Virus record (IMG/VR): IMGVR_UViG_3300028024_000007
Location: 1,650 to 65,649 of that record
Length of the DNA stretch: 64,000 nucleotides
Origin: a virus
Strand: one strand, 5' to 3'
Every line of letters begins with the position of its first letter. Within the stretch, counting starts at the first letter, position 1. Under the pieces are notes generated by a model. The model searched no databases. It had not been told where the DNA came from and worked only from the letters and a program-made list of their open reading frames with translations. A program made the position numbers and the translations under genes. This document shows, piece by piece, positions 1,669-18,868 of the stretch.

Positions 1669-2493
1669 GTGCCAGCCGTCGCCCTGGTAGACCCGGACCG
1701 CGTCGTCTGGGCCGCCCGCCAGAAGCTCCTCCTGGGCGCCAGGAACGACTTCCACAAGTTCGGCCCCGCCGTCGTCCGGAACGACCAGGGTGAGCCCATC
1801 CGCTACGCCCCCATCCACCTCTGGTGGATCGCCCACATCAACTATGCCTGGAGCCGCGGGAAGCACGCGGGGATCTTCGCCCCGTTCGGCCACGGCAAGA
1901 GCTCGGCGCTGTCCTGCCCGCTCCTGGCGTACCTGGTGGGCCACAACCCTCAGGAGCGCATCAAGATCGTCTGCGCCGGTGACAGCGCCGCCGCCCTCCG
2001 CATGCAGTCCGTGAAGCAGATCATGGAGTCGCCGCTCTACGGCCACGTGTTCCCGGAGGCGCGCCGGTCGAAGCGCGGCAAGTGGACCGACCACATGATG
2101 GTGGTCGAGCGGCGCGGGCACGCGATCGATCCGACGATCGAGGCGCGCGGCGTCCTGACGAAGGCCACCGGCGCTCGCGCCACGACCATCCTGTTCGACG
2201 ACATCGTGGACGCCGAGAACAGCACCACCCCGGAGAAGCGCGCCAAGAACACCCGGCTGACCGAGGTGCTCTGGATGTCCCGCCTCGAGCCCGGCGGGCG
2301 CGCCCTGGCGATCGCCACCCCGTGGGACCTGGAGGACACCTCCTACCAGCTCCGCGCGCGCCCCGACTTCTGCTGGCTCGAGCAGCGCGTGAAGGAGGAC
2401 CTGTCCGGCTACGAGCAGGACGCCCACAACGTGGGCCTGGACTACGCGGCCGAGTGCTCGCGCAACGTGGCCGAGATGCTGGCGGACCCGTAG
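1669..2493 (+). CDS. terL: Terminase large subunit, N-terminal ATPase domain only
   Basis: Walker A APFGHGKSS, Walker B ILFDDIVD, coupling motif IATPWDLED. The stop follows soon after, with no nuclease domain. Confidence 0.85.
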   Translation: MPAVALVDPDRVVWAARQKLLLGARNDFHKFGPAVVRNDQGEPIRYAPIHLWWIAHINYAWSRGKHAGIFAPFGHGKSSALSCPLLAYLVGHNPQERIKIVCAGDSAAALRMQSVKQIMESPLYGHVFPEARRSKRGKWTDHMMVVERRGHAIDPTIEARGVLTKATGARATTILFDDIVDAENSTTPEKRAKNTRLTEVLWMSRLEPGGRALAIATPWDLEDTSYQLRARPDFCWLEQRVKEDLSGYEQDAHNVGLDYAAECSRNVAEMLADP

Positions 2494-2516
2494 GGGCTCT
2501 GGCCAACATCCCCGGC

Positions 2517-2885
2517 ATGGAGAACGAACAAGAGACGTCGGCCGAGCGCGCGAAGCGCCTGTCCGACGAGGTGCAGAAGCTGGCCCCCGAGGTCGCCGCG
2601 GAGGCGGTCGCCGGCCTGGTGGGCGCCGTCATAACCTCCGCCGCCGGCCTGACGAAGGAGACCGAGCAGCACTTCCGCACGGCGGAGCGGCAGATGGACA
2701 CGGGGGCCGTCGTGTCCCTGATGGTCCAGGGCGCCCTCGCGGCAATCTGCGAGGGACACCCGGACGAGGACGTCCGCCACCGGCTCTACCGGGCCGGCCG
2801 GGCGATCGGCGACTTCATGACCGAGCGGTGGCGCTCCCAGATCGAGGAGAAGGTCGAGGCAGCGCACCGGGAGAACGCTTCGTGA
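2517..2885 (+). CDS. Hypothetical helical protein
   Basis: ATG 2517 in the frame of track ORF 2082..2885; GTGA coupling downstream. Confidence 0.65.
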   Translation: MENEQETSAERAKRLSDEVQKLAPEVAAEAVAGLVGAVITSAAGLTKETEQHFRTAERQMDTGAVVSLMVQGALAAICEGHPDEDVRHRLYRAGRAIGDFMTERWRSQIEEKVEAAHRENAS

Positions 2886-3448
2886 GCGGCAAGCCGTGCG
2901 ACGCCTGCGGTACTTACAACGACATGCACGACGGGCGCTTCCACGCGCTGTCCGATCGGGTGAAGAAGCTCGAGAACGTCTCCGTCAAGTACGAACCGCC
3001 GAGCGTCGTCGCGATGCCGCCGGGTACGTCGTTCACTCTCACGGGGAAGACGGAGCTGCCGGCGCTGAGGATGGTGATCGCTCCGAACAGGTTCCTCATC
3101 GCGACGGAGATCGAGGCGGAGCTGCTCCGCGCTCGCGAGCTCTACCCGGACAGCATCCGCCTCCCGGACGGAGTCGCTACCTGCCACGCGCGCGTGACGT
3201 ACCGGAGGATGGCGCAGGCGTGGTGCGAACGCGCGACGCGCGAGGGGATCCTCACGCACACCGACGTGTTCGACGAGGAGGTCTCGGAGGCGCTCGACGC
3301 GCGGTCGCTCGCTGACCTGCGCAAGGAGCTGATCCAGGTCGGAGCGATGACGGTGAAGTGGCTCGAGCACATCGACGAGCGCCTGGCGGCGGGCGAGGTG
3401 AACACCGCCGCGAACAAACAAGAACTGAAGGGAGGATCGAATGGGTGA
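2882..3448 (+). CDS. Protein with C-terminal MazG-like (all-alpha NTP pyrophosphatase) domain
   Basis: FDEEVSEALDA...LRKELIQVGAMTVKWLEHID resembles the EExxE...KELxQVAA motif of phage MazG-like proteins; N-terminal CDAC motif. Confidence 0.55.
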   Translation: MSGKPCDACGTYNDMHDGRFHALSDRVKKLENVSVKYEPPSVVAMPPGTSFTLTGKTELPALRMVIAPNRFLIATEIEAELLRARELYPDSIRLPDGVATCHARVTYRRMAQAWCERATREGILTHTDVFDEEVSEALDARSLADLRKELIQVGAMTVKWLEHIDERLAAGEVNTAANKQELKGGSNG

Positions 3449-3881
3449 AGACGTCGTCCGAGGCAAGAAGTACAAGAAGCAGCTCCGCGTGGAGATGACC
3501 GACAAGGAGATCGAGAAGAAGGGTCGGTCTGCCGGTCACCTCAAGAAGGAGTTCGACCAGATCAAGGCGAAGCAGAAGGCCGCCGCCGACATGTACAAGG
3601 AGGAGCTCGCGGAGGTGAAGACGAAGCTCGACGCCGTGCTCGCCGACCTCGAGGCAGGCGGTGACGAGCGCAACGTCGACTGCGTGGACGAGAAGGACTT
3701 CAAGCGCAACGTCGTGCGCACGATCCGCCTCGACACGAACGAGGTGGCGGAGACGCGCGCGCTCGCGGCGGAGGAGCGCCAGGAGATGATCGACGGCGCG
3801 GATGACGGTGAGGGGGCGCCCGCTGAAGAGGTCGCCGAGGAGAAGCCGAAGCGCAGCCGCAAGAAGAAGGCGGCGGAGTAA
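3441..3881 (+). CDS. Hypothetical coiled-coil protein
   Basis: Lys/Glu-rich heptads; RBS GGAGG upstream. Confidence 0.7.
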   Translation: MGEDVVRGKKYKKQLRVEMTDKEIEKKGRSAGHLKKEFDQIKAKQKAAADMYKEELAEVKTKLDAVLADLEAGGDERNVDCVDEKDFKRNVVRTIRLDTNEVAETRALAAEERQEMIDGADDGEGAPAEEVAEEKPKRSRKKKAAE

Positions 3882-3887
3882 ACGAAG

Positions 3888-5006
3888 ATGGGCGACACCA
3901 GCATAGAGTGGACGGACTGGTCCCAAAATGTTTTTCGCGCGCGCCTGAACGGGCGCACCGGTCACTACTGCGTGAAGGTGTCGCCTGGTTGCAAGAACTG
4001 TTACAGCTCGCGGCTCCAGCCGCGGTTCGGCCTGCCGCAGTTCCAGGAGCAGCGCGGGGAGGACGCGCCGGAGGTGTACCTCGACCCGAAGAAGCTCGGC
4101 GAGGTCCTGCGCCGGAAGAAGCCAACGAAGATCTTCTGGTGCGACATGACCGACATGTTCGGCGACTGGGTCCCGTTCGAGTGGGTCGCCGCGTGCTTCG
4201 GGGTGATGGCCGCGACGCCTCAGCACACGCACCAGGTCCTCACCAAGCGCCCTGACCGCGCGCTTGAGTTCTTCCGGTGGCTCGGGGGGATGGTCGGCGC
4301 GGACGTCAGGACCGGCCTGAAGCTCGTCGCCCCGGCGGAACCGGTGATGGGCTGCTTCATGCAGGCGAGCCGGGTGCTGGTCGACCTGCCTGGCCAAGCC
4401 GCGCTGCTCGTGGCCTGGCAGAAGCCAGTCGCGTGGCCACTCCCGAACGTGCACCTGGGGGTCAGCTGCGAGGACCGGCGCCGCGCCGACGAACGGATCC
4501 CGCTGCTCCTGAGCTGCCCGGCCGCCGTACGGTGGGTGAGCGCGGAGCCTCTCTTGGAGTCGATCGACTTCCAGCGGATCCCGGCGAACCACGCGGGAGC
4601 GCAGTGGGACATGGTCGAGGCGCTGACGGGGAAGGAGTACTCGGACGAGGAGCTGTTCCCGCTGGATGACAAGGAGGATCGCCCGGTCGCGCCGCGCATC
4701 GACTGGGTCGTCGTCGGAGGCGAGAGCGGGCAACGCGCGCGCCCCTGTGACATCGGGTGGATCGGGGACATCGTCGACCAATGCCGGGACGCCGGCGTCC
4801 CGGTGTTCGTGAAGCAGCTGGGGAAGCGCCCGGTCGACGGGTCCGTCCCGGTCAGGGTGGACTCGGTCATCGAGCCCGGGTTCGCCATGGCCGGCGGAGG
4901 GAGCGCCCCTGTGGCCTACCCGATCCGCAGCACGAAGGGCGGTGACCCGGAGGAGTGGCCGGCGGAGTTGTGCGTCCGAATGATGCCCGGGGAAGCCTGG
5001 GAATAG
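3888..5006 (+). CDS. Phage Gp37/Gp68 (DUF5131) family, radical-SAM-like protein
   Basis: TSIEWTD, CVKVSPGCKNCY, DMTDMF, QVLTKRP, LGVSCED, SAEPLL, WVVVGGESG..ARP and VFVKQLG motifs. Confidence 0.9.
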   Translation: MGDTSIEWTDWSQNVFRARLNGRTGHYCVKVSPGCKNCYSSRLQPRFGLPQFQEQRGEDAPEVYLDPKKLGEVLRRKKPTKIFWCDMTDMFGDWVPFEWVAACFGVMAATPQHTHQVLTKRPDRALEFFRWLGGMVGADVRTGLKLVAPAEPVMGCFMQASRVLVDLPGQAALLVAWQKPVAWPLPNVHLGVSCEDRRRADERIPLLLSCPAAVRWVSAEPLLESIDFQRIPANHAGAQWDMVEALTGKEYSDEELFPLDDKEDRPVAPRIDWVVVGGESGQRARPCDIGWIGDIVDQCRDAGVPVFVKQLGKRPVDGSVPVRVDSVIEPGFAMAGGGSAPVAYPIRSTKGGDPEEWPAELCVRMMPGEAWE

Positions 5007-5024
5007 CCGTCGGACGATTCCCGT

Positions 5025-5053
5025 TTGCGTTCTAGTTTTAATTACGGTAGTAT
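5025..5053 (+). promoter_or_regulatory. Strong sigma70-type promoter in an AT-rich island (probably early, leaderless)
   Basis: TTGCGT-N17-TAGTAT within an unusually AT-rich stretch; ATG 7 nt downstream at 5061. Confidence 0.7.
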
Positions 5054-5060
5054 CTAGGTC

Positions 5061-5258
5061 ATGGAAACGACGACGGAACGGAAGGTGCCCCGCCTCGCCC
5101 CCCTGGCCTTGCAGCCGGCGACTGACATCTGGTCGCACCTGGCGGCCATGGTGGTCCACTCCTCGGCCTCCACCCCCACGGTCGAGTTCGAAGACGAGCC
5201 GACCGTGACGTACGGCGAACCGGTCACGGTGGTCGAGCGCCGGGTGGTGCGGTTGTGA
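5061..5258 (+). CDS. Hypothetical protein
   Basis: Follows the promoter directly; GTGA coupling to the next ORF. Confidence 0.55.
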   Translation: METTTERKVPRLAPLALQPATDIWSHLAAMVVHSSASTPTVEFEDEPTVTYGEPVTVVERRVVRL

Positions 5259-6055
5259 ACCCCGGTATCCTGGTCCACACTGCGAAGCGGACTATCGCCG
5301 CTCGCTGCCAGCGCAGCGGGTCTCCGTGGCTAGCGCTAGAGGTGTCCCGGTACCGGAGGCGTGACGGGTGGGCCTATGCCACCGCCCGTGACCTACCTGG
5401 GGAGCGCGTGGTCGTGGTGTCCGGACCCGGTCACGTGGTGGGCCAGCCGCACTTCGACCTCCCCCTGTACGAAGCCCTGGTGAAGGCTCGATCGTCATCG
5501 GGGACGTCTCTTCCGGAGATGCCGCGCGACCCGTCTGACGGCGTCGATGGCGGCGGGTTGTCTGATGGTCCGGACGCGCTCCCGTGTGGGCACGCCGGCC
5601 CGGCGGTCGATGGGTGGTGCCCCCGGTGCGCCGCCCTGACCGGGGACGCCGAGGACGTCGCCGGCGCCGCCGCCGAGCTGCTCCGCGCGGGGCGCCTCTC
5701 CGGCCGCCTGGCGGAGGTGGCCTTCTACGACCCGCCGGGCCGGGCCGCCATGTACGCCGAGCACGAGTGGCAGGTCCGCGCCCGCCGGACCGGGGCCGTG
5801 GTCCTGGCGCACGACGCGTTCGAGGCGGCCCGGTGGTTCGTCCGGATCGAGAGCGGCCACCCGGGGTTCCGCCTCCCCCACGGCTCCTGCTTCCGGATGG
5901 CTAGTGACCTGGTCAAGGCGGAGCTCGCTTACAACCGCTGGTGCCGCAGCGAGCGGGCGGCGTACCTGTCAGCCGTGACCGACATCCACCGCGAGCGCCT
6001 GGCCCGCGCCCGGTCCGAGTTCCTCGGCCGGCTCGGCGCCCGCCCGCTGCCGTAG
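5255..6055 (+). CDS. Hypothetical protein
   Basis: Coupled ORF with a CGH..CPRC motif. Confidence 0.55.
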   Translation: MNPGILVHTAKRTIAARCQRSGSPWLALEVSRYRRRDGWAYATARDLPGERVVVVSGPGHVVGQPHFDLPLYEALVKARSSSGTSLPEMPRDPSDGVDGGGLSDGPDALPCGHAGPAVDGWCPRCAALTGDAEDVAGAAAELLRAGRLSGRLAEVAFYDPPGRAAMYAEHEWQVRARRTGAVVLAHDAFEAARWFVRIESGHPGFRLPHGSCFRMASDLVKAELAYNRWCRSERAAYLSAVTDIHRERLARARSEFLGRLGARPLP

Positions 6056-6114
6056 GATCTGCCGGGACGGCGCCGCCCGCGCTGCGCCCGGCCAACAACC
6101 CAGGAGGAGACCCC

Positions 6115-6639
6115 ATGCGAGAGAACAACCGAGCCCTGAACTTGATGTGCGCCGCCGTCGTCCTGGCGGCCTCCGGCTACGCCTTCGCCAGCGACCCAAT
6201 ACCCTACTTCCGCCCTGACCCGAAGCCGGTCATGTACGGCCCCGACCTGCCGGACCCGATGGCCACGGAGTGCTCGGCCAGGGACGCCGCCTGCATCCGC
6301 GGGCACGACTACCGGCTCCTGTCGACCGCGCTCAAGGTCCACGACCGCGCCCTGTGCTTCAAGGCCACGGACGAGGCCCGGTGCCTGGCGGTCTACGACA
6401 TGGTCGAGGGCGACGTGGTCATCCCGCTCAACCCCGTCCTGGCGGATCCCTGCGCGCAGGTCCTCCTGGTGGACGGCGGACGGGCGAAGGTCAGCTCGTC
6501 GAAGCTCGGCGTCGTCCGGTGGGTGCTGAACCGCGGATACAAGGCCGGGACGCACGTGGGCAACTGCCAGACCCAGGCCGCGCTCGAAGTGAAGGTCCCG
6601 CTGCCGGAGTGGAAGCCGATGCCCCGGAGCGCGCCGTGA
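6115..6639 (+). CDS. Predicted exported protein with signal peptide and paired Cys
   Basis: RBS AGGAGG; N-terminus MRENNRALNLMCAAVVLAASGYAFA. Confidence 0.65.
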   Translation: MRENNRALNLMCAAVVLAASGYAFASDPIPYFRPDPKPVMYGPDLPDPMATECSARDAACIRGHDYRLLSTALKVHDRALCFKATDEARCLAVYDMVEGDVVIPLNPVLADPCAQVLLVDGGRAKVSSSKLGVVRWVLNRGYKAGTHVGNCQTQAALEVKVPLPEWKPMPRSAP

Positions 6640-6902
6640 GCGACCCGGCAGAGATGTGGGTCCTCGAGTCGGACTGGGACGTGGAGAGCGGGTCTCCGCT
6701 GAACGTCGTCGACGTCGCAGGCCGCGTGGTGGCCCGGGTGGATCCGGCGTACCCGGAGGCCGCTGAGGTGGCGAGGCTGATCTCGGTCTCCCAGAAGCTG
6801 CGGGAGTTCGTCCAGGAGAGCCACTGGGTCACCAACGTGGACGTGCTGGGGCTGCTCCTGTGGATCCGCAAGGGGATCGCTCGAAAGGAGGCAAAGTCGT
6901 GA
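6636..6902 (+). CDS. Hypothetical protein
   Basis: GTGA-coupled at both ends. Confidence 0.55.
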   Translation: MSDPAEMWVLESDWDVESGSPLNVVDVAGRVVARVDPAYPEAAEVARLISVSQKLREFVQESHWVTNVDVLGLLLWIRKGIARKEAKS

Positions 6903-7366
6903 GCGACGAGCTGGGCTGGGAGGTGTCGAAGCTGCTGGCGCGCGCGGAGGCGCACGTGGAGGCGGAGGTCGGCGGGGGCCCTCCGCCTGCGCCCCCGGTG
7001 ACGGGGCTCGTCCCTGGCGACAAGGTGCTCTACCGCGGGGTCCTGATCCGCTGCGTGGAGATTCGCTGCCCGGAGACCGGTGCGCGCCGTCCTGCCTACG
7101 CCGGCTACCGCGGCGGGTACCACTGCTTCACCGCGCACGAGCAGGAGCTGGCCCGCCACCTCGCCGACGTCTCTCCGGAGGCGACCGCGTGCGTGAGCTA
7201 CGCCCACGACTACGAGTCCCTCGCCGCCTGGTGCGCCAAGCACGGGCTCGGGTGGGACTCGGCGACGGCCATGTACTTCTGCTCGGAGGGGGCGTCCCGG
7301 CTCATCGACGGCGACCCGGAGCGGTTCATGCGTCTGGTGCGCGCCCTAGCGGTGGGTGCAGCGTGA
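6899..7366 (+). CDS. Hypothetical protein
   Basis: GTG 6899 after RBS GGAGG. Confidence 0.6.
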   Translation: MSDELGWEVSKLLARAEAHVEAEVGGGPPPAPPVTGLVPGDKVLYRGVLIRCVEIRCPETGARRPAYAGYRGGYHCFTAHEQELARHLADVSPEATACVSYAHDYESLAAWCAKHGLGWDSATAMYFCSEGASRLIDGDPERFMRLVRALAVGAA

Positions 7367-8088
7367 TGCCGCCGACGGTCCGGTGGGCGCGCGTCACCGT
7401 CCCGGGGCTCGGCGACAGGGACGTCCTCTCGTTCGGATTCCGCCAGGACCTGGTCGACGCCGTGAAGATGGCTGCCCCGGGCCACGCGCGGAGGTGGGAC
7501 CCGATGGCGAAGATGTGGGTCGTCGACACTTCGTGGACGAACCTGGTGCTCGACAAGCTCAAGTCGCTCGGCGCGCGCATCGAGCCGGACAGGGGCCTCG
7601 CGAAGGTATTCGCGGCGCGAACGAAGGTGGACGCCGACGTCGAGGCGAAGGCGCGCGCGGCGGCCGATGGCGCCCCATGCAGCGGTCCAGCGGAGCCGCG
7701 GTGCACGTGCTCGAGCAACACGTCGATGGGTCCGAAGGACCACCGGCCGGGGTGCCCGTTCTTCATCCCGCCAAGGAAGTCGCCCTGGAGGGAGACGGTG
7801 TTCGAGGGTAGCTGGAAGGACTTCGAGCAGTTCATGCGGGGGGTGACGCCGGGGCGGGGGGCCGCGCGTCCGTCCCCGCCGCCGTCCCCATTCCGCCGCG
7901 GTATGCAGCCGTCCGAAGAAGACTACCGCGTCCTCGGCGTGGCGCAGTCGGCCGACCTGCAGGCGGTGAAGGCGGCGCACCGGCGCCTGGCGCTCGAGAA
8001 CCACCCGGACCGCGGCGGGGACACGCAGAAGCTGGCGCGGATCAACGTCGCCCGCGACCGCGTCGTCTTCGCGCTGGGGCAGCGATGA
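7366..8088 (+). CDS. HARP-like domain plus C-terminal DnaJ J-domain fusion
   Basis: C-terminus DYRVLGV..SAD...VKAAHRRLALENHPDRGG..QKLARINVARD has an intact HPD. N-terminus FGFRQDLVDAVKMAAPGHARRWDPMAKMWVV resembles a HARP motif. Confidence 0.8.
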   Translation: MPPTVRWARVTVPGLGDRDVLSFGFRQDLVDAVKMAAPGHARRWDPMAKMWVVDTSWTNLVLDKLKSLGARIEPDRGLAKVFAARTKVDADVEAKARAAADGAPCSGPAEPRCTCSSNTSMGPKDHRPGCPFFIPPRKSPWRETVFEGSWKDFEQFMRGVTPGRGAARPSPPPSPFRRGMQPSEEDYRVLGVAQSADLQAVKAAHRRLALENHPDRGGDTQKLARINVARDRVVFALGQR

Positions 8089-8312
8089 GCCGCCTCAATG
8101 AATTGCAGGAGGAACTTCGGCTTTTGCTGATGAAATACTCCGACGTCGTCATCGTCGCCTTCGCGCAAGAGTTCGACGTCGGGGAGCAGGTGACACACGG
8201 CCCCGTGAAGTACTTCGGGAACAGGGAAGGCTGCGAGGCGATCTTGAACGACGAGCTCCTGAAATTTATCTCTCGCCAGAATCGAACCAGGAAAATGCGG
8301 AGGAGGAATTGA
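8085..8312 (+). CDS. Hypothetical protein
   Basis: ATGA-coupled; lower-GC codons than its neighbours. Confidence 0.55.
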   Translation: MSRLNELQEELRLLLMKYSDVVIVAFAQEFDVGEQVTHGPVKYFGNREGCEAILNDELLKFISRQNRTRKMRRRN

Positions 8313-8899
8313 ACCAAGAGCCATTCGCGTGCGTGGTGGCCGACCCGCCCTGGGCGTTCTCGGACCAGCTCTCGGGGGAGAAGCGCGGCGCCGCCAGGAA
8401 CTACGACGTCATGTCGGTCGACGACCTCTGCCGCATCCCGCTCCCCCCGATCGCCGACGACGCCTACCTGTTCCTGTGGCGCGTCTCCGCGATGGTGGAG
8501 GAGGCCTACCGGGTCGTCCGGGCCTGGGGGTTCAAGCCGAAGTCGGAGGTCGTCTGGAACAAGCTGACGAAGACCGGCAAGCCCTGGTTCGGCATGGGCC
8601 ACCACGTCCGCGCCTCCCACGAGACCGCCATCCTCGCCGTGCGCGGCCGGCCGACCCGCTACAACGCCAGCACGCGGTCGTCGTTCTCCGCCCCCGTGCT
8701 CCGGCACAGCGAGAAGCCGGCGGCGTTCTACGCGCTGGTCGAGGGGCTCTGCCCGGGGCCGCGGGTCGAGCTGTTCGCCCGGGCGGAGCGCCCCGGGTGG
8801 ACGTGCCTCGGGAACGAGCTGGTCACGCCGACGGTGTTCCCGGTGGCGCAGTCCAGCCTGTTCGGAATCGGTCCGGCCAACACGGAGGGGGAGACATGA
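8309..8899 (+). CDS. MT-A70 family N6-adenine methyltransferase
   Basis: VVADPPW catalytic motif, YLFLW, GMGHHVRASHE, HSEKP and VELFAR..PGW...GNE; TTG start after AGGAGG. Confidence 0.9.
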   Translation: MNQEPFACVVADPPWAFSDQLSGEKRGAARNYDVMSVDDLCRIPLPPIADDAYLFLWRVSAMVEEAYRVVRAWGFKPKSEVVWNKLTKTGKPWFGMGHHVRASHETAILAVRGRPTRYNASTRSSFSAPVLRHSEKPAAFYALVEGLCPGPRVELFARAERPGWTCLGNELVTPTVFPVAQSSLFGIGPANTEGET

Positions 8900-9132
8900 T
8901 CGCCTGGCTGAAGAAGCTCCTCCGGCGCGAGCCACCGCCCCCGCCGCCTCCCCCCCCGGTCCTGGCCCACTGGGTCCCCGGGACGTTCGACCGATCTGCG
9001 TACTGCGGGGAGGGCGAACCGGGGGTCTACGCGGTGGACGCCCAGTCGTTCATGACGATGCGCGACCGCTGCACGCCGTGCTCGCGCGCGGCCTGGTCGA
9101 GGCTGATGGCGTACAGGACCAAGAACCGGTGA
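8896..9132 (+). CDS. Hypothetical protein with poly-Pro tract
   Basis: ATG 8896 coupled to the methyltransferase stop. Confidence 0.55.
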   Translation: MIAWLKKLLRREPPPPPPPPPVLAHWVPGTFDRSAYCGEGEPGVYAVDAQSFMTMRDRCTPCSRAAWSRLMAYRTKNR

Positions 9133-9143
9133 GGAGGTCAGTC

Positions 9144-9278
9144 ATGTGGAGAGAGCGAGACGGGTTCGGGTGGCTCGGGACGCTGAAGCTCGCGTGCGAC
9201 TTCGCGTTCGCCTGCGCGGTCGGGTCGGCTGCCGGCGCGGTCGTGGCGATCTGCTACGTGGAGATCTGGTGCAAGTGA
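9144..9278 (+). CDS. Small membrane protein
   Basis: RBS GAGGAGG; one hydrophobic segment. Confidence 0.5.
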   Translation: MWRERDGFGWLGTLKLACDFAFACAVGSAAGAVVAICYVEIWCK

Positions 9279-9288
9279 GGAGGGACTG

Positions 9289-10351: not shown

Positions 10352-10674
10352 AGACGCTGAAGGTCGAGCAGATGGGGACGGAGGTCCAGGGCATCAGGCT
10401 CTTGGGCGAAAGATGCAATCCTGAACCGACGCACGTTCGGATCGTGTTCCCGGGCGGCGACGTGGACGTCGCGCGCTGCGACGACGGGAGCTACTGGGTC
10501 CACGTTCGGGTGGACAGCGCGAAGGACGCGGTCGAGAGCGACGGTGGTCGCCCGGCCGGCAGGCTGGTCGACGCGCGCCTCGACGTCCGCGGGAAGCACG
10601 CCAGCGAGTGCGACGCCGGCGACTTCGCCGATCCTGGCCTGTACCACCTGGCCGTCCGGGTGGCGCGCGCGTAG
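10348..10674 (+). CDS. Hypothetical protein
   Basis: ATGA coupling. Confidence 0.6.
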   Translation: MKTLKVEQMGTEVQGIRLLGERCNPEPTHVRIVFPGGDVDVARCDDGSYWVHVRVDSAKDAVESDGGRPAGRLVDARLDVRGKHASECDAGDFADPGLYHLAVRVARA

Positions 10675-10704
10675 CAGCTCGGCGCCGTGATACCGTCTCT
10701 TCCC

Positions 10705-11355: not shown

Positions 11356-12203
11356 TCGCGCCGCGTTCCGAGTCAGAGCTGCTGAACGTCCTGGTCGCGT
11401 ACCCGTACATGTCCGATCGGGTGATCAAGATCCTGTCGGACGGCCAGGAGAAGATCCGGTTCCTCCTCGACTCCGGCGCGTTCACCGCGTGGAAGGCGAA
11501 GAAGAAGATCGAGGTCGACGACTACTGCAGGTTCATCGAATCGATGCCGTTTAAGCCGTGGCGCTACTTCACGCTCGACGTGGTTGGCGACCCGGCGGGG
11601 ACGATGCGGAACTACCTCACGATGGTGAAGCGGGGCTTCAAGCCCGTGCCGATCTTCACCCGCGGCGAGGACTTATCTGTGATCGACGACTACTACGAGA
11701 CGAGTGACGTGGTCGGGGTCGGCGGACTGGTGGGGACGCCGGGGAACAAGGGCTTCGTGAACGGGGTAATGAAGCGGGTGAAGAGTCGTCGCTGCCACTG
11801 GCTGGGCTTCACCTCGGTCGAGTTCCTCAAGCACTACCGGCCGTACATGTGTGACTCGTCGACGTGGGAGGTGGCTATGTACGGCGGCTTGGTCCTGTAC
11901 GACAGGGCCGGGATGTCGGTGAAGCTGAGCAAGGCGGACTTCGCGAAGAGGCCGACGAAGCGCGTGGTGGACCTGATCAGGTCTTACGGCGTCGACCCAG
12001 CGGTGTTCGCGCGAGACGCGAGCGGCTGGTCGACGGTCGGTTCGGGGAACCGCATGGTCAACGCGATGAGCGCGGTCAGGATGTCGCTCGACGTCCAGCG
12101 ATCTCTGGGTACGCTGCTGTTCATGGCCGCGTCGGCTGGCAACGGAGACGTGGCGAGGTTACTGCACGGTTATGATTTCGAAATGAAGAGGGGGACCACA
12201 TGA
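11352..12203 (+). CDS. dpdA: TGT-fold DNA transglycosylase candidate (DpdA-like; inserts 7-deazaguanine into DNA)
   Basis: FLLDSGAFT (TGT DSGG-like), TLDVVGD, PVPIF..GED, VGVGGLV, HWLG and DSSTW motifs; coupled to queC. Confidence 0.65.
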   Translation: MIAPRSESELLNVLVAYPYMSDRVIKILSDGQEKIRFLLDSGAFTAWKAKKKIEVDDYCRFIESMPFKPWRYFTLDVVGDPAGTMRNYLTMVKRGFKPVPIFTRGEDLSVIDDYYETSDVVGVGGLVGTPGNKGFVNGVMKRVKSRRCHWLGFTSVEFLKHYRPYMCDSSTWEVAMYGGLVLYDRAGMSVKLSKADFAKRPTKRVVDLIRSYGVDPAVFARDASGWSTVGSGNRMVNAMSAVRMSLDVQRSLGTLLFMAASAGNGDVARLLHGYDFEMKRGTT

Positions 12204-12874
12204 AGACTCTGATCATCCTGTCTGGAGGCGCCGACAGCGCCGTGCTCGCGCACCACCTGGTGGACGCTGGCCACGAGCTCGAGGCCGTGTCGTTCGACTA
12301 CGGCCAGCGCCACAAGCGCGAGCTGGTGGCTGCCGCGACGGTCGCGCGCGACCTGGGGGTACCGCACCGGGTGATCGACCTCCCGGGCCTGGGCGCGCTC
12401 CTGAGCGGCTCCGCGCTCACGGACCCGAGCGTCCCGGTCCCGCACGGTCACTACGAGGCGGAGACCATGCGGCAGACCGTGGTGCCGAACCGGAACACGA
12501 TCATGCTCTCGATCGCGTGGGGCATCGCGTGCTCGTCCGGGTGCGACGCGGTCGCGCTCGGCGTCCACGCCGGCGACCACTACATCTACCCGGACTGCCG
12601 CCCCGAGTACCTCCAGGCGCTCGAGCGCGCGCTCCTCCTGGGGACCGAGGGCCACCGCAAGGAGCAGATGGGGCTGATCGCCCCGTTCCGCGACATGACG
12701 AAGCAGCAGATCGTGGCTCGCGGGCTCGAGCTCGGGGTCAAGTTCGAGCACACCTGGACCTGCTACGAGGGCGGCGCGTTCGCGTGCGGCAAGTGCGGGT
12801 CGTGCCGCGAGCGCCTGGAGGCGTTCGAGAAGTCCGGCGCCGTCGATCCGGTCGCGTACGCACCGGCGGCCTGA
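12200..12874 (+). CDS. queC: 7-cyano-7-deazaguanine (preQ0) synthase
   Basis: SGGADS, FDYGQRH, VPNRN, YPDCRPEY and TWTCY...CGKCGSC motifs. Confidence 0.97.
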   Translation: MKTLIILSGGADSAVLAHHLVDAGHELEAVSFDYGQRHKRELVAAATVARDLGVPHRVIDLPGLGALLSGSALTDPSVPVPHGHYEAETMRQTVVPNRNTIMLSIAWGIACSSGCDAVALGVHAGDHYIYPDCRPEYLQALERALLLGTEGHRKEQMGLIAPFRDMTKQQIVARGLELGVKFEHTWTCYEGGAFACGKCGSCRERLEAFEKSGAVDPVAYAPAA

Positions 12875-12887
12875 TAACGTCGCTGAC

Positions 12888-13562
12888 GTGGCGACGTCCG
12901 ACGATATCAGGGGACGGCTTGAAGCCGCCGGCCTCCCGTACCTCTCCAACGACAACGTCAGCCGGGCCGTCCAGCCGGGTGACCTGACTAGGATCGAGGA
13001 GGAGGTCGCCGGTCACGTCCGCGGCCTCCTCCGCTCCCTGGTCATCGACGTCGACCGCGACCCGGGCTCGCAGAAGACGCCCGAGCGGGTGGCCAAGATG
13101 CTGGTACGCGAGGTCATGTGCGGCCGCTACGAGCCGGTGCCGGCGGTGACCAGCTTCGAGAACACCAGGGAGCTCGACGAGGTCTACGCGGTGGGCCCGG
13201 TCGACGTGCGGTCCATGTGCTCGCACCACCTGGTCCCGGTCGTGGGGCGCGCCTGGGTGGGTGTCCTGCCGGACAGGAAGCTCATCGGCCTCTCCAAGTT
13301 CTCCCGCCTGACGTCGTGGGTGATGGCCAGGCCGCAGATGCAGGAGGAGGCGACCATCCAGCTCGCCGACCTGCTGGAGGAGATGATCGAGCCGCGCGGC
13401 CTGGCGCTGGTCGTCCGCGCGAGCCACATGTGCATGACCTGGCGGGGGGTCCGCGACTCGTCCGCGGAGATGGTCACCAGCGTCATGCGCGGGGCCTTCC
13501 TGGAGAAGCCCGCCGCGCGGGCGGAGTTCCTGGCCCTGGCGCGGCCAACACGCTCGACATGA
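12888..13562 (+). CDS. folE: GTP cyclohydrolase I
   Basis: TPERVAKM, SMCSHHLVP, GLSK, RPQMQE and HMCM..RGV...TS.MRG.F motifs. Confidence 0.97.
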   Translation: MATSDDIRGRLEAAGLPYLSNDNVSRAVQPGDLTRIEEEVAGHVRGLLRSLVIDVDRDPGSQKTPERVAKMLVREVMCGRYEPVPAVTSFENTRELDEVYAVGPVDVRSMCSHHLVPVVGRAWVGVLPDRKLIGLSKFSRLTSWVMARPQMQEEATIQLADLLEEMIEPRGLALVVRASHMCMTWRGVRDSSAEMVTSVMRGAFLEKPAARAEFLALARPTRST

Positions 13563-13978
13563 AGATCGCCATCACGAGGTACCACGACTTCTCGGCCGGT
13601 CACCGGGTCGTCGGGCACGAGGGCAAGTGCCGCAACCTGCACGGCCACAACTACAGGGCCCACTTCGACGTGGTCTCCGACCGCCTCGACGCCGTCGGCA
13701 GGGTGGTCGACTTCTCGGTCGTGAGGGACCGCCTGTGCGCGTGGCTCGAGGAGAACTGGGACCACCGCATGGTCCTGTGGGATCAGGACCCCGACCTAGC
13801 GGTGATCCGCGCGGTCGACCCGACCGTCGCGGTCGTGGGGTTCAACCCCACGGCGGAGAACCTGGCTCAGCACCTGGTGTTCGTGGTCGGCCCGGCGCAG
13901 CTCGCCGGAACGGGGTGCAGCCTCCAGGGCGTGACGCTCGAGGAGACGCGCAAGTGCGCGGCGAGCGTGACGGCGTGA
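13559..13978 (+). CDS. queD: 6-carboxy-5,6,7,8-tetrahydropterin synthase
   Basis: FSAGHR...GKCRNLHGHNY, GRVVDF and PTAENLA motifs. Confidence 0.95.
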   Translation: MKIAITRYHDFSAGHRVVGHEGKCRNLHGHNYRAHFDVVSDRLDAVGRVVDFSVVRDRLCAWLEENWDHRMVLWDQDPDLAVIRAVDPTVAVVGFNPTAENLAQHLVFVVGPAQLAGTGCSLQGVTLEETRKCAASVTA

Positions 13979-14649
13979 CCTACCCGGTGAACGAGGTGTT
14001 CCTGACTGTCCAGGGCGAGGCCGCGAACGCGGGGCTGCCGGCGGTGTTCGTGCGCCTGCAGGGCTGCTCGGTCGGTTGTGCGTTCTGCGACACCAAGCAC
14101 ACGTGGGAGCTCTCCGACCAGAACTTCGTCCCGCTCGCCAGGATGCTGGGGAAGACGGAGGTGGCGACGCCGCAGTACGCGGAGGTCGGCACCGACGACC
14201 TGGTCCAGGAGGTGGTGCGCGCGGCGCGCGGCGCGCGCCTGGTCGTCCTGACAGGCGGTGAGCCCGCCGACTACGACCTGGAGCCGCTGGCTTTTGGTCT
14301 CGAGGCGCGCGGGCTCCGCGTCCAGGTCGAGACGTCGGGGACGACGCCGGTCATGGTGACCAAGGACGCGTGGGTGACGGTCAGCCCGAAGATCCTCCAG
14401 GCCGGCGGGCTCTCCGTCGTCCGGGAGGCGGTCGAGCGGGCGGACGAGATCAAGCACCCGACCGCGACCCAGCGCCACGTGGACGAGCTCCGGGAGCTGC
14501 TGGCGATGGGGTGGCACCGGCCGGGGATCCCCGTGTGGCTCCAGCCGCTGTCGCAGTCCCCCCAGGCCACCGCCCGGTGCGTCGAGTGGTGCCGCCAGTA
14601 CGGCTGGCGCTTGTCGGTCCAGACCCACAAGTACCTGGGGCTGCGGTGA
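13975..14649 (+). CDS. queE: 7-carboxy-7-deazaguanine synthase (radical SAM)
   Basis: EVFLTVQGE, FVRLQGCSVGCAFCDT, LTGGEP, ETSG, TVSPK and WRLSVQTHK motifs. Confidence 0.96.
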   Translation: MTYPVNEVFLTVQGEAANAGLPAVFVRLQGCSVGCAFCDTKHTWELSDQNFVPLARMLGKTEVATPQYAEVGTDDLVQEVVRAARGARLVVLTGGEPADYDLEPLAFGLEARGLRVQVETSGTTPVMVTKDAWVTVSPKILQAGGLSVVREAVERADEIKHPTATQRHVDELRELLAMGWHRPGIPVWLQPLSQSPQATARCVEWCRQYGWRLSVQTHKYLGLR

Positions 14650-15965
14650 CCGACTACCGCCCCCGCCTGCTCGGGCGCCTCCCCGGGTTCTCCGACCGCG
14701 CCCTCGACCAGCACCTGGCGCTCTACGAGGGCGCCGCGCGCGAGCTCCAGGCCGCGCGCTCCCAGCTGCGCCTGGTGTCGGCGGCCGTGCCGCCCGCCGC
14801 GCTCTCGCTGCCCGCCGGTGACCTCCAGCGCGTCCTCGACACGCCGATCGGCCAGCTCCAGCTGTCGCTCGAGGGCGGCCGCCTGGGCGACGCGCTCGCC
14901 CGGCTCCGCGCCGAGACCAGGTCCAAGGGGATCACCTGGTGGCCGAACTTCTACCTGGGCGGCGACGACTTCTGGACCACGGACCGCGCCACCAGCGTGA
15001 ACCTCCCCTGGTACCTGGGGAGCGAGGCCACCTGGCGCATGGTGAACGACCGGCGCCTGAAGCTCACGGAGGACGACGTCCTGCGGATCCTCCGCCACGA
15101 GTACGCCCACGCGCTGCTCTACGCCTACGAGGGGTGGGAGGCGCCCGGCTGGGAGGAGGCCTTCGGCCCGTTCGGCGCCCCCTACCAGGACGCCTACGAG
15201 CCCGACGCGGCGGCCGCGGAGGACTACGTGGTCCACCTGTCCCGCCCCGGGCCCGGCCAGCTGGCGCACTACCCCCAGAAGCACCCGGACGAGGACTGGG
15301 CGGAGACGTTCGCCGTGTGGCTGGCGGGCGTGCGGCCCGGCGAGTACGAGGAGGGCACCGGCGCCGCCCGCAAGCTGGAGGTGGTGGCCCGCCTGGTGGT
15401 GGACCGGGGCAGGTTCTACGGCGACCCGAAGGTGACGGCGCTCGGCCGCCGCGAGCCGTACCAGCAGCTGACGGAGACGGTCGGCGACTACCTGGGGGCG
15501 CGCGCCGCCTACTCGGAGCACAGCGCCATCCTGCGCCGCCTGCCCGACCTGCACGCCGCGGTGAGGCTGCACGAGCTGCACTTCGAGAACCTGGCCCCGC
15601 CTGCCGGCGGGTACCTCGGCCTGAACACGGCGCTCCTGGCGGCCGAGGCGTTCGGCTCGACCGACGCCTGGCTGGCGGACCTGCGCGCCGCCGCCGGCAG
15701 CACGTCCGGGTGGTCCCTGGCGGCGTGGGACCCGAGGGAGCGCCGGGTCATCACCGCCCTGGTGGAGGGCGAGTCGCGCGGCGTCCCGCCCGGCTGCCAG
15801 ATCCTCCTGGCGGTCGACTGCCACGAGCACGCCTACGAGCTCGACTACGGCGCCACGGGGAAGCACCTCGGCCTGGCGGCGCAGTTCAACTGCGTGGACT
15901 GGCTCGAGGTCGAGCGGCGCCTGATGGTCGCCGCCGGCATCCCGTCAGACCTGGCGCTGGCGTAG
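14646..15965 (+). CDS. Fe/Mn superoxide-dismutase-fold protein with an inserted zinc metallopeptidase domain
   Basis: SOD N part LPGFSDRALDQHLALYEG. Insert with LRHEYAH and YPQKHPDEDWAETFAVWL. SOD C part LHELHFENL, FGS..AW, GW, and LAVDCHEHAYELDYG...VDWLEVERR. Confidence 0.75.
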   Translation: MTDYRPRLLGRLPGFSDRALDQHLALYEGAARELQAARSQLRLVSAAVPPAALSLPAGDLQRVLDTPIGQLQLSLEGGRLGDALARLRAETRSKGITWWPNFYLGGDDFWTTDRATSVNLPWYLGSEATWRMVNDRRLKLTEDDVLRILRHEYAHALLYAYEGWEAPGWEEAFGPFGAPYQDAYEPDAAAAEDYVVHLSRPGPGQLAHYPQKHPDEDWAETFAVWLAGVRPGEYEEGTGAARKLEVVARLVVDRGRFYGDPKVTALGRREPYQQLTETVGDYLGARAAYSEHSAILRRLPDLHAAVRLHELHFENLAPPAGGYLGLNTALLAAEAFGSTDAWLADLRAAAGSTSGWSLAAWDPRERRVITALVEGESRGVPPGCQILLAVDCHEHAYELDYGATGKHLGLAAQFNCVDWLEVERRLMVAAGIPSDLALA

Positions 15966-16124
15966 CTCGACCGCGTCATAACTTGACGGATCCGCGCCTG
16001 CTCGGCCGGATAGCTTGCTCTGGTATGGACCGCCACCGCGTCGCCCCCCGGAGGTCGCCGCGCGCGGCAGCCCGGCGGGGACTCGGCGGGGCCGGCCAAC
16101 ATGTCTCCCAGGAGGACGGAGACG

Positions 16125-17300
16125 ATGAGCAGCCCAGAAGAGCGAGAGGTCGAGTATCGGGAGCGATTGTTCGCCGCGCAGAAGCAGCACGCCGAGGCGA
16201 TCTTGGTGGAGGCGAAGAGGCAGTCGGTCGCGCTCGAGTCGGTCGCGAACCTGCTGGCCGAGTACGCGGTGTACATGAAGTCGAAGGAGGCGCCGGAGGA
16301 GGTGGAGTTCATCGGTTCGGCGATCCTGGAAAGGGTCGAGAAGATGCGTAAGACGCCGCACCGGTTCACCCTCCTGGACGCGAGCGACACCAGCGTCATC
16401 AGGTGCCTCGTCTGCCACCTCCCGAAGGGGATCATCGCCCACGACTTCAATCGCGCCGGCGGCGTCGAGGTCAAGCTGACGAACGCTTCGGTGCAGGCGG
16501 GATCTCCGAAGTGCGTCGAGTGCGGCACGCCGGAGTACGTCGTGCCGGGATTGTCGATGGCATCGTCGACGTGGCTGTGTCGCAGGTGCGGGTGGGCGAG
16601 CGTAGACGGGCTGACGTGGTGCCAGCCGCCGAAGTCAGCGAATACGATTGTTGAGCAAGACCAAGACGTCGCGTCCGTCACGAATGACCTGACCGAGGCA
16701 CACGTCGGAATCTCCGGTGCGATCTTCGACCTCCAGCAGCAGCACCTATTGGTCCCCGAGCAATTGTCGAAGGCGCGGCGCCACATCGACCTGGCGATCG
16801 ACGTCATCAACGACAAGCTGGTCACCAGGGTCAAGGACGCGGAGAAGCGCGCGAGGGAGAACCAAGAAGACCGCTCGCAGGCGCTGCGCGTCCTCGACGA
16901 AGTCCGCGACAAGCGAGACGCGCTCGCCGCGAAGAACAATGCGTTGTTCGCGGACTACGAGGCCCTGCTGGTCATCCATGCGCAGCTCACGCGGTCCGCC
17001 AAAGACCACGACGCCCGCGTCGAGCAGCTCCTGGCGTCCGAGAGCGCGGCGCTCGAGAAGGTCGCCGCCGCGGAGCAGCGCGTCCGTCACGCGAGCGCGA
17101 CGTGCGAGCGCGCCATCGCCGACGCGCTCCACCTTGCCAGGGAGCGCGAGGGCGCCGTCATCAAGGAGCGCGCTCGCGTGACTGACGCGGTCGTCGCAGA
17201 ATACGAGCGGATGAGGAACGCGGGCCGGATGTTCCAGTTCGACGTGGCGGACATCCGCATGGCGGCCGCGCCGGACTACGTCCCGGTGAAGGCGCTCTGA
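16125..17300 (+). CDS. Hypothetical protein with CxxC pairs and a long coiled coil
   Basis: CLVC, CVEC and CRRC pairs; helical C-terminal half; RBS AGGAGG. Confidence 0.65.
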   Translation: MSSPEEREVEYRERLFAAQKQHAEAILVEAKRQSVALESVANLLAEYAVYMKSKEAPEEVEFIGSAILERVEKMRKTPHRFTLLDASDTSVIRCLVCHLPKGIIAHDFNRAGGVEVKLTNASVQAGSPKCVECGTPEYVVPGLSMASSTWLCRRCGWASVDGLTWCQPPKSANTIVEQDQDVASVTNDLTEAHVGISGAIFDLQQQHLLVPEQLSKARRHIDLAIDVINDKLVTRVKDAEKRARENQEDRSQALRVLDEVRDKRDALAAKNNALFADYEALLVIHAQLTRSAKDHDARVEQLLASESAALEKVAAAEQRVRHASATCERAIADALHLAREREGAVIKERARVTDAVVAEYERMRNAGRMFQFDVADIRMAAAPDYVPVKAL

Positions 17301-17428
17301 TGCTCCGCGCGGCCACCCTCGTCGTGGTGATACTGGTGCTCGCCTGCCAGGTGGTGGACATCTGGTTCACCGTGACGTCGGTGCGTCGCCTGGAGGCCCG
17401 CGTGGCGGCCGTCGAGGCGTGCGAGTGA
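17300..17428 (+). CDS. Small membrane protein (42 aa), not in the ORF track
   Basis: MLRAATLVVVILVLACQVVDIWF...; TGATG overlap upstream and GTGA overlap downstream. Confidence 0.55.
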   Translation: MLRAATLVVVILVLACQVVDIWFTVTSVRRLEARVAAVEACE

Positions 17429-17796
17429 GGCCCCTGGTCGTCCTCCTGCTCCTGTCCGCCTGCGGTGTGGATGCCATGCCGTTCGGCGGGGCGACCGGCG
17501 CCACCCCGGGGAAGCTCTCCCGCGGGGCGGCCGGGGCCGCGGGGGGCGAGGAGGGCGGCCGCGCCGGTACCGCGCCGGTGTCCAGCGGAGGCGCCCCGGG
17601 TGGGTCTGCGGGTACCGGAGCAGGTCCCGGGGGATCCGTGGGGGCGCCTCCACTGGGTACCGGCGGATCGGTCGGTTCGACGGGTGGGACGCCGGGGGCG
17701 AGCGGATCCGGAGGCTCCGTACCGCCAGGTACGGGCGGCGACCAGGGTGTCTGCTACGACACGAACGGCAACCTCGGCACCTGCCCGCGCCCCTGA
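17425..17796 (+). CDS. Gly/Ser/Thr-rich lipoprotein
   Basis: Lipobox LLLLSAC; GTGGS-type low-complexity region; C-terminal Cys pair. Confidence 0.7.
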   Translation: MRPLVVLLLLSACGVDAMPFGGATGATPGKLSRGAAGAAGGEEGGRAGTAPVSSGGAPGGSAGTGAGPGGSVGAPPLGTGGSVGSTGGTPGASGSGGSVPPGTGGDQGVCYDTNGNLGTCPRP

Positions 17797-17880
17797 GGGG
17801 CGCGCAGGAGCCCGCCGGTACGTCCGGACGCCCGGGACGAGAACGCCCCGTACGGCGCGAACCGGTGAGCCAGGCGCCCC

Positions 17881-17909
17881 TTGCCGTATCGGCCGCCGTA
17901 CCCCAAGGT
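17881..17909 (+). promoter_or_regulatory. Putative leaderless promoter
   Basis: TTGCCG-N17-CAAGGT, with ATG 7 nt later at 17917. Confidence 0.5.
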
Positions 17910-17916
17910 GGGGGCC

Positions 17917-18072
17917 ATGATCATCCTCATCCCCCTCCTGGCCTGCATCGTCGGCGTCCTGGTCTACGCCCTGGCCTCGAACCCCAAGGTCCAGGAGATG
18001 GGGCGCCTGGCGTTCGGCGCCGGCCTCCTGGTGACGCTCTGGGAGGTCGCCGGGCACGTCCTGCGGCTGTAG
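17917..18072 (+). CDS. Small two-TM membrane protein
   Basis: Two hydrophobic segments in 51 aa. Confidence 0.6.
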   Translation: MIILIPLLACIVGVLVYALASNPKVQEMGRLAFGAGLLVTLWEVAGHVLRL

Positions 18073-18085
18073 TACCCTCGGGGGC

Positions 18086-18868
18086 ATGAGGGCCGTCCCC
18101 AAGCTCCAGCTGCCCGAGCTCCCCCGGTGGGAGGAGAAGTTCCCGCTCGAGGTTCTCCAGGCGAAGGCCAGCGGTCGCGAGGTGGGCGGCTCGGCCATGT
18201 GGCTCCAGGGGTTCCGGATGCAGGTGGTGAAGCCAGGGGACCTGAAGTTCCCCAGCTTCCCGTCCTGCCTGTCCCCCGGCCTGGTCCTGTCCGAGGTGTG
18301 GCGCCGCGCGCTGCCGACCTACGTGGGGGTCGACCTCTCCAGCGCCAGCCGCCCCGGCAACTTCATCGTGGCGGTGGCGGTCGACACGGCGAACGGAATC
18401 CGGATCCCCGTGGAGGCCAGGGCCGGCGCCTGGAGCTCCCCGGAGACGGCCGAGGTCCTGACGGACGTCTGCTCCCACCACCCGAACCTCCAGTACGTGA
18501 TGGTCGAGAACAACGCCTACCAGGAGGCGATCATCGACTGGGTCAAGAAGGGCAAGTCGGCCTTCCCCTGGTGGAACAAGGTCGAGGCCCACACGACCGG
18601 GCGGAACAAGGCCGACCCCGCGTTCGGCCTCCCCGGGCTCGAGGTGGAGTTCGCGAACCACAGCTGGGCGTTCCCGAGCGGCGAGTGGGAGGGGCACGAG
18701 ACGGGGCACGACTGCGCCTGGTGCGTGCTCTCCCGCGAGTTCCGGCTCTACCCGAAGTACAGCACCTCCGACGGCATCATGGCGACGTGGTTCTGCAAGG
18801 CGGCCATCGACCGCTGGTGGCGCCCCGGCTCCTCCCGCAGTGCGAAGCGCGACCACAACGTGCGATAG
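18086..18868 (+). CDS. terL: Terminase large subunit, C-terminal lid plus RNase H-like nuclease domain as a separate gene
   Basis: PRWEEKFPLEVL...MWLQGF (LWPE-type lid), YVGVDLS, VMVENNAYQEAI, GRNKAD and YPKYSTSDGIMA (FPxxxHDDxxDA-like). Has its own -10-like TACCCT 7 nt before the ATG. Confidence 0.8.
   Translation: MRAVPKLQLPELPRWEEKFPLEVLQAKASGREVGGSAMWLQGFRMQVVKPGDLKFPSFPSCLSPGLVLSEVWRRALPTYVGVDLSSASRPGNFIVAVAVDTANGIRIPVEARAGAWSSPETAEVLTDVCSHHPNLQYVMVENNAYQEAIIDWVKKGKSAFPWWNKVEAHTTGRNKADPAFGLPGLEVEFANHSWAFPSGEWEGHETGHDCAWCVLSREFRLYPKYSTSDGIMATWFCKAAIDRWWRPGSSRSAKRDHNVR

Follow-up and report, generated by a model that had tools for sequence, protein, structure and literature searches.

Can a phage large terminase (TerL) work when its two enzymatic domains are encoded by separate genes that lie far apart in the genome? 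This question is raised by IMG/VR virus record IMGVR_UViG_3300028024_000007, of which a stretch of 64,000 nt (bases 1650–65649 of the record; hereafter, the window) was analyzed. In the window, the TerL ATPase domain and the TerL nuclease domain are encoded by free-standing genes at 1669–2493 and 18086–18868, respectively, both on the plus strand. The stop codon of the ATPase gene is at 2491–2493 and the nuclease gene starts at 18086, with 15,592 nt between them, and the two domains are not on one polypeptide. The two products quite probably form a two-chain, non-covalent TerL that acts as a normal T7-type terminase.

The ATPase and nuclease halves of TerL

The ATPase half (274 aa) carries Walker A (APFGHGKSS, residues 71–79), Walker B (ILFDD, residues 174–178) and the coupling motif III (ATPWDLED, residues 216–223). 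The nuclease half (260 aa) has an RNase H-type fold with catalytic residues D83, E141 and D229, and contains PRWEEKFPLEVL at residue 13, WLQGF at 39, GVDLS at 81, VENNAYQ at 140, NKAD at 174 and PKYSTSDG at 223. A first-pass annotation of this DNA had reported both open reading frames (ORFs) and quoted motifs for each; the frames and every quoted motif were found in place. The GC content at third codon positions (GC3) is 0.97 for the ATPase half and 0.98 for the nuclease half, and therefore both are true coding frames.

In searches against PHROGs, the ATPase half matches positions 267–467 of phrog_38 (terminase large subunit, 760 positions; E = 1.7e-28) and the nuclease half matches positions 488–683 (E = 7.3e-8). 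The two matches adjoin without overlap, which agrees with the initial description of the halves as complementary. In Pfam, the ATPase half has only a sub-threshold match, to Terminase_6N (E = 0.051), and the nuclease half has no match. Because neither half reaches the Pfam threshold, annotation tools that expect one intact TerL call such phages terminase-less or incomplete.

The AlphaFold model of the ATPase half (predicted local distance difference test, pLDDT, 92.3), which has a terminal helix at residues 259–272, aligns by VIA with PhiV-1 TerL (8dgc chain E) at Z = 22.0 and a root-mean-square deviation of 2.5 over 229 aligned residues (model residues 10–248 on chain residues 2–263). Its Z scores against the T4 gp17, HK97 and P74-26 ATPase domains are 16.5–18.4 (T4 gp17, 18.4). 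This gene therefore encodes an ATPase domain of the ASCE class, complete with both Walker motifs and coupling motif III, as in T7/phrog_38-type TerL. In the nuclease model (pLDDT 85.8), for which Foldseek ranks terminase nucleases first, residues 49–247 align by VIA-align with terminase nucleases at Z = 14–17 (D6E, 17.0; G20c, 15.8; herpes simplex virus (HSV) pUL15, 15.8; T4 gp17 residues 359–561, 15.4; the SPP1 terminase nuclease also falls in this range), compared with Z = 9.9 at best for RuvC-type resolvases. The product fits terminase nuclease folds, and has the RNase H-like domain with three catalytic acidic residues found in T7/phrog_38-type TerL.

D83, E141 and D229 are invariant across an alignment of 36 nuclease-family members, and P13, L24 and G42 in the N-terminal segment are nearly invariant in the family. 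The N-terminal ~47 residues of the nuclease chain (18086–18226, plus strand), which precede the nuclease fold at residues 49–247, form a predicted lid- or linker-like docking segment. The nuclease-family profile found no solved structure by sequence, and tblastn with the nuclease half, like tblastn with one relative in which the two halves are adjacent, matched no cultured phage.

The ATPase half is the sole packaging-type P-loop gene found in the genome by a P-loop scan and PHROGs. The remaining canonical P-loops belong to a DnaC-like loader, a UvsX-like recombinase and SbcC, and one, probably a chance occurrence, lies near the end of the portal gene. The first-pass annotation had named an intact terL elsewhere in the genome as one of the findings that would speak against a split; no second terminase was found in the genome by tblastn with either half, PHROGs on ORFs of at least ~230 aa or the P-loop scan.

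The break and its junctions

When the two halves are compared with a fused relative (L038, 525 aa), the ATPase half covers residues 32–260 and the nuclease half residues 279–486, which places the break within the ~18-residue linker of this protein. Residues 19–80 of the nuclease chain align to the inter-domain segment 279–340 of the same relative. The split form has just 23 + 18 residues of its own, far too few for split-intein halves. No Rfam family reaches its gathering score in the window, no tRNA was found there, and comparison of the two junctions revealed no common repeat beyond a 10-nt GC-rich word. The statement that no intein, intron or repeat is present at the junctions is thus borne out by the Rfam search, the L038 alignment and the repeat comparison.

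A check for misassembly had been recommended at the outset. A Logan contig of 35,210 bp, built by a second assembler from the likely source run and probably from the same sample as the record, covers window positions 1000–19500 with 0 differences, the comparison being made on assembled contigs. Contigs of four runs contain no credible joint linking the two genes. The joints listed in these contigs have sides of 20–56 nt, lie elsewhere, are noise-like and come from contigs of other organisms, and were disregarded. The split is neither a misassembly nor a result of decay.

Conservation of the split in related phages

The same break is present in 11 related genomes with separate halves. In the nearest relative, a 93,289-bp IMG/VR genome, the ATPase half (19805–20611; 69% identical) and the nuclease half (2207–2986; 78% identical) are on one strand, 16.8 kb apart, and the two halves are among the best-conserved genes of the region between the two phages. 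Ten further IMG/VR genomes of 60–89 kb, whose nuclease halves are 39–67% identical, have one stand-alone ATPase half each, and in nine of these ten the ATPase half lies upstream, by 13.8, 15.3, 10.5, 13.6, 13.0, 14.2, 8.1, 13.2 and 15.8 kb. The arrangement with ATPase upstream and nuclease downstream, 8.1–16.8 kb apart, thus holds for 10 of the 11 related IMG/VR genomes examined.

Wherever the alignment covers them, both Walker motifs and motif III are retained in the ATPase halves of these relatives. In one relative (G008; L108:518–2518, 47% GC), a LAGLIDADG-type intein extends the stand-alone ATPase gene to a frame of 666 aa; it interrupts the P-loop itself (between GK and C at its start and between HN and T at its end), and is thus inside the ATPase half and not at the break. 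Inteins at such sites are typical of active, essential proteins.

Stand-alone halves are also found in the protein database, which holds 69 nuclease halves (143–293 aa) and 25 ATPase halves (248–282 aa), none with a Pfam domain or an informative name. An exhaustive search with the nuclease profile found 3,387 proteins at E ≤ 1e-3, of which 416 have E ≤ 1e-30. Among the best 150 cluster representatives, 73 have at most 340 aa and match from the N-terminus (stand-alone size, although some of these short representatives may be fragments), and 73 have more than 420 aa and match in the C-terminal half (fused).

A graded series of arrangements was read across 80 IMG/VR loci. Distant relatives (nuclease identity ≤ ~38%) have single fused ORFs of 490–720 aa. 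Intermediates (L017, L020, L034, L036, L040 and L078; GC 45–66%) have two cistrons that share a GTGA or ATGA stop/start overlap or overlap by 8–158 nt; overlapping stop and start codons are the usual sign of translational coupling. In L035 and L030, gaps of 0.5 and 1.7 kb separate the halves.

In the nuclease-domain tree, fused and split sequences are intermingled, and at least four changes of the fused label are required on well-supported branches; the adjacent-split and reversed forms nest within the far-split group with 98% support in the SH-like approximate likelihood ratio test. Because the two states are mixed in this way, splitting, and possibly also re-fusing or re-approaching, appears to have happened more than once, with the halves behaving as independent genes. 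The cut between the domains is probably old, and it is widespread. The halves would at first have been adjacent, translationally coupled cistrons that later moved apart by insertion or rearrangement. The space between them would then have become a slot for variable cargo in the clade, occupied here by a 7-deazaguanine DNA-modification cluster.

Comparison with known terminases

The same motifs are found in one-chain T7-type TerL (PhiV-1 TerL 8dgc chain E, T7 gp19 and phrog_38), with fold matches of Z = 22.0 for the ATPase and Z = 14.2 for the nuclease. Whereas this enzyme is a single polypeptide, that of the window is cut in the ~18-residue linker, with ~23 extra residues overall; the ATPase chain has gained a C-terminal helix, and the nuclease chain an N-terminal head.

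Herpesvirus pUL15 also has two coding parts that flank other genes, but its exons are spliced into one mRNA and yield one protein. The window resembles HSV UL15 in having coding parts around other genes and in the nuclease fold (Z = 15.8), whereas UL15-type splicing was not seen in the window. Interruption of phage terL by group I introns, homing endonucleases or inteins is known from Lelliottia phage phD2B, K1E and Jug phages (PMC4246154, PMC12880540). In these cases terL likewise consists of two or more ORFs, but splicing of the RNA or the protein joins them again, and what interrupts them is a selfish element of ~1 kb; in the window, the break contains neither an intron nor an intein, and 15.6 kb of ordinary genes separate the halves.

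Searches of the literature on split terminases surfaced only such intron and intein cases, and a two-gene precedent was reached by tblastn instead. With a distant relative in which the halves are adjacent as query, tblastn matched Kitkat, KellEzio, BeatusComedenti and DanielleIgnace, in proteins annotated as 'terminase large subunit, nuclease domain'. Cultured Arthrobacter phages with annotated separate ATPase-domain and nuclease-domain terminase genes form plaques (PMC5513430; PMC11920828). The view that terL is interrupted only by introns, inteins or splicing is thus contradicted by cultured phages, and the novelty suspected for a two-gene terminase is lost to the precedents in phage clusters AT and AY, in which, as in the window, the ATPase and nuclease genes are separate and lack a splicing element.

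The phages of cluster AT (Kelleziovirus: Kitkat, KellEzio, BeatusComedenti and DanielleIgnace) are like the window in having free-standing halves on one strand with the ATPase first, unrelated genes between the halves and the nuclease near the portal. In Kitkat, gene 4 (1607–2389) encodes the ATPase domain and gene 11 (4303–5289) the nuclease domain, and the portal is at 7067; the two halves are 1.9 kb apart, with six genes in between, one for a RusA-like resolvase and five that are small, compared with 15.6 kb and ~27 genes in the window. Residues 68–310 of the Kitkat nuclease-domain protein align to family positions 12–244 (hhalign probability 96.9%), and residues 42–239 of its ATPase-domain protein align to family positions 44–235 (hhalign probability 91%). 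By profile alignment, the break is at the same inter-domain point in both, although identity is only ~20%. Cluster AT phages have 58-kb genomes and an actinobacterial host, whereas the phage of the window is a 93-kb myovirus. In the nuclease-domain tree, Kitkat sits on a branch of 2.3 substitutions among other long branches, where its placement is unreliable, so that a common origin of the Kitkat and window splits is no more than a possibility. In cluster AY Arthrobacter phages (e.g., BillyTP), the halves are consecutive genes, like those of the adjacent-split relatives described above and unlike those of the window (PMC11920828).

The window thus represents an extreme variant of a layout already present in cultured phages. 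New features are the 15.6-kb distance, with the halves in different modules, the variable cargo between the halves and the large uncultured clade, in which halves 8–17 kb apart, or even in reversed order, occur across ~80–93-kb myoviruses.

Proposed assembly of the two chains and alternative explanations

The complex model of the two halves has an ipSAE of 0.82 (median of three runs: 0.82, 0.83 and 0.79), compared with 0.00 for the best control. In calibration, 58 of 80 solved complexes and 2 of 110 mismatched pairs came up to the ipSAE mark; these counts apply only approximately here, because alignments made for the present analysis were used. The confident interface involves only residues 2–47 of the nuclease chain, which contact ATPase-chain residues 45–52, 70–75 (P-loop), 217–221 (motif III) and 232–264, the last stretch including part of the terminal helix 259–272. 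With the conservation of the split in relatives, this model makes the trans-assembled two-subunit enzyme proposed in the first-pass annotation the best available reading.

We infer that the halves associate physically and function as one motor, as follows. The ATPase chain and the nuclease chain would be translated separately and would come together non-covalently. The N-terminal ~47 residues of the nuclease chain would pack on the ATPase beside the P-loop, motif III and the C-terminal helix; this head would complete the ATPase domain and tether the nuclease, replacing the inter-domain linker of one-chain enzymes. In the assembled pair, the ATPase would translocate DNA and the nuclease would cut concatemers, as in an ordinary T7-type TerL. 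The earlier suggestion that the ATPase lid is supplied by the nuclease chain is partly upheld: the model docks nuclease residues 2–47 by the P-loop and motif III, but part of the lid/subdomain II would be on the ATPase chain itself, because the fold alignments take this chain up to T4 gp17 residue ~340 and P74-26 residue ~233.

Several observations weigh against a two-chain motor of this kind. The complex score may mirror the model's memory of solved one-chain TerLs, and would then indicate likeness rather than binding. In one relative (G007; L107 / L026), the order is reversed: the nuclease half is 1.07 kb 5′ of the ATPase half on the same strand, with a Sod_Fe_C-type gene before it, which shows that no fixed gene linkage is required. 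A consensus scan of 900–19200 found 0 sigma-70-type promoters, so that co-expression of the halves is conjectural. The same scan did not recover the '-10-like element' that had been noted before the nuclease ATG, and the accompanying idea that the two activities are independently regulated finds no promoter to stand on; terminator counts in the scan were no higher than in shuffled sequence. No small terminase was identified in the genome. The phage is uncultured and known only from metagenomes, and two-gene TerL appears in the literature searched as annotation only.

A sister group of ATPase halves weighs in the same direction. Nine of the 25 stand-alone ATPase-family proteins (P0082–P0085 and P0087–P0091) have neither the GK[ST] of Walker A nor the DD of Walker B: a 3-residue deletion removes GK[ST], and Walker B reads FN[AS] or FDS in place of FDD. 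These proteins are well conserved among themselves (mean column identity 66%), and one of them is at the same syntenic position as the 1669–2493 gene, after SbcD and SbcC. Because both Walker motifs are lost in this group, the ATPase half would be unable to serve as an ATP-burning motor in at least one lineage, and an unseen second ATPase may exist in the clade. Loci encoding Walker-less halves include L113:7356–8159 and L123:6780–7592. The IMG/VR scan yielded no complete genome with a Walker-less half, and a metagenome scan gave already-known genomes only; the contigs that carry one (13.7 and 24.8 kb) have no nuclease half on them. A 561-aa neighbour of a Walker-less half (DUF8224, phrog_1735) was considered as a replacement terminase and rejected, as it has neither a P-loop nor a PDB relative.

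The chief alternative to a two-chain TerL is that the products act separately, without a stable complex, the ATPase half being a portal-bound translocase and the nuclease half a free endonuclease that starts and ends packaging; motors of the phi29 type, which are without an active nuclease, would be the model. The genes are in different modules, as the ATPase gene follows recombination genes and adjoins a lysozyme-like gene while the nuclease gene heads the structural module. Their distance and even their order vary among relatives, and the Walker-less sister group indicates that the halves can evolve apart. Two independently acting enzymes would, however, leave nuclease residues 1–47 otherwise unexplained, whereas in the complex model these residues form a coherent interface, with the score far above that of the best control; this segment is also conserved (P13, L24 and G42) and corresponds to the inter-domain segment of fused relatives. 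We regard separate action as unlikely. The notion that terL has broken down, leaving one or both halves as relics while another unrecognised enzyme packages the DNA, draws on the decay of the ATPase half tolerated in the Walker-less group and on the many genes of the genome without assigned function. It is very unlikely, as it conflicts with the intact catalytic motifs, the GC3 values, the place of both halves among the genes most conserved in the nearest relative, the motifs kept by the ATPase halves of the IMG/VR relatives and the lack of any other terminase-like gene in the searches given above.

Rejoining of the halves, by a trans-splicing intron, a split intein or DNA-level excision of the 15.6-kb block, would bring the window into line with the known terL interruptions by group I introns, homing endonucleases and inteins (PMC4246154, PMC12880540), and the G008 relative does bear an intein, though inside its ATPase half. 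Yet no Rfam intron is present in the window, the extra residues at the break number only 23 + 18, in adjacent-split relatives the stop and start codons overlap, the block is not bordered by repeats, the contigs of four runs show no credible joint and the content of the block varies among relatives, unlike that of one element. Such rejoining is barely conceivable.

A further reading, also improbable, is that the halves lead separate lives: the ATPase half would be expressed with recombination and modification genes and the nuclease half with head genes, at different times, and the ATPase-fold half would have gained an ATP-independent role, such as that of a scaffold through which the packaging complex receives modified or processed DNA. 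If true, this would explain selection on Walker-less halves and would imply a packaging motor powered in an undescribed way.

To our knowledge, structural and single-molecule work on terminases has all been done on one-chain TerL, in which the ATPase and nuclease communicate through a covalent linker. Natural two-chain enzymes would show that this linker is dispensable, and a two-chain TerL would offer a ready system for studying how the nuclease is restrained during translocation and switched on at termination.

Genome organization and neighbouring genes

The virus record is 92,779 bp long with 70% GC and a 131-bp end overlap, and an SbcC-like gene spans its ends (genome 91406–92779 joined to 5–442); the genome is therefore complete, and circular or circularly permuted. 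In a whole-genome gene call from the GC3 signal, 138 of 140 genes are on one strand. PHROG matches identify the phage as a myovirus, and the genome looks like one from a soil metagenome. The structural module begins with the portal gene (21333–23141, plus strand; phrog_64, E = 4.7e-8), 2.5 kb 3′ of the nuclease half, which is close to the usual place of a T7/phrog_38-type TerL gene, at the head of this module beside the portal. PHROG matches further mark a head morphogenesis gene (27147–28067), the major head protein (32120–33493), the tail sheath (37195–38901), the tape measure (39974–41713) and a baseplate wedge (46907–47875). The remaining third of the genome includes genes for a DnaB-like helicase, a DnaC-like loader, a UvsX-like recombinase, a single-stranded DNA-binding protein and SbcCD. 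Many genes have no assigned function in PHROG searches.

The ATPase half lies between recombination genes and the cargo region, away from the portal. Directly 5′ of it is a lysozyme-like gene (1029–1664, plus strand) without a Pfam or PHROG match, for which the only lead is from the ESM Atlas (feature score 0.94 to phage lysozyme/pesticin clusters, TM 0.77). Its product was considered as a small terminase and rejected, since it resembles lysozyme.

The variable cargo region (2494–18085, plus strand) contains ~27 genes by the GC3-based gene call; the earlier count was ~28, and their common orientation is as first described. PHROG matches in this region are a DNA methyltransferase (8309–8899), a ParB-like protein (10705–11355), a DpdA-like transglycosylase (11352–12203), QueC (12242–12874), GTP cyclohydrolase (12888–13562), QueD (13559–13978) and QueE (13954–14649). 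The gene row at 10705–14649 predicts that the phage DNA may be modified with 7-deazaguanine. The block from the methyltransferase to QueE is common only to the nearest relative, and the cargo differs in the others. Next to it, a 439-aa gene (14646–15965, plus strand) has a C-terminal match to Pfam Sod_Fe_C (E = 2.5e-10) and a weak match to the metallopeptidase family Peptidase_Mx (E = 4e-4). Homologues of this gene are 0.2–2.5 kb 5′ of the nuclease half in L102–L107 and L112; apart from it, relatives beyond the nearest share little cargo with the window.

Just 5′ of the nuclease half (17300–18072) are a 42-aa membrane peptide, a Gly-rich ORF (17419–17796) that bears Cys and a lipoprotein-like signal, and a small membrane protein of two helices, whose stop codon is 13 nt before the start of the nuclease gene. 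These small genes may be spanin- or holin-type lysis genes. An HNH endonuclease gene (28102–28806) is directly 3′ of the head morphogenesis gene; HNH proteins adjoining packaging genes help DNA cutting in some cos phages.

One relative contig (L115; CAZPUH010000492.1, 87,962 bp), which is of whole-phage size, is binned in an uncultured Myxococcales metagenome-assembled genome. This binning is the sole hint at a host and is weak evidence that it may be myxobacterial. In a 742-aa helicase (L086:9191–11419; genome 74191–76419), the middle part (residues ~317–408) resembles HNH endonuclease profiles and, faintly, an intein-bearing terminase profile, which suggests that this helicase carries an inserted element.

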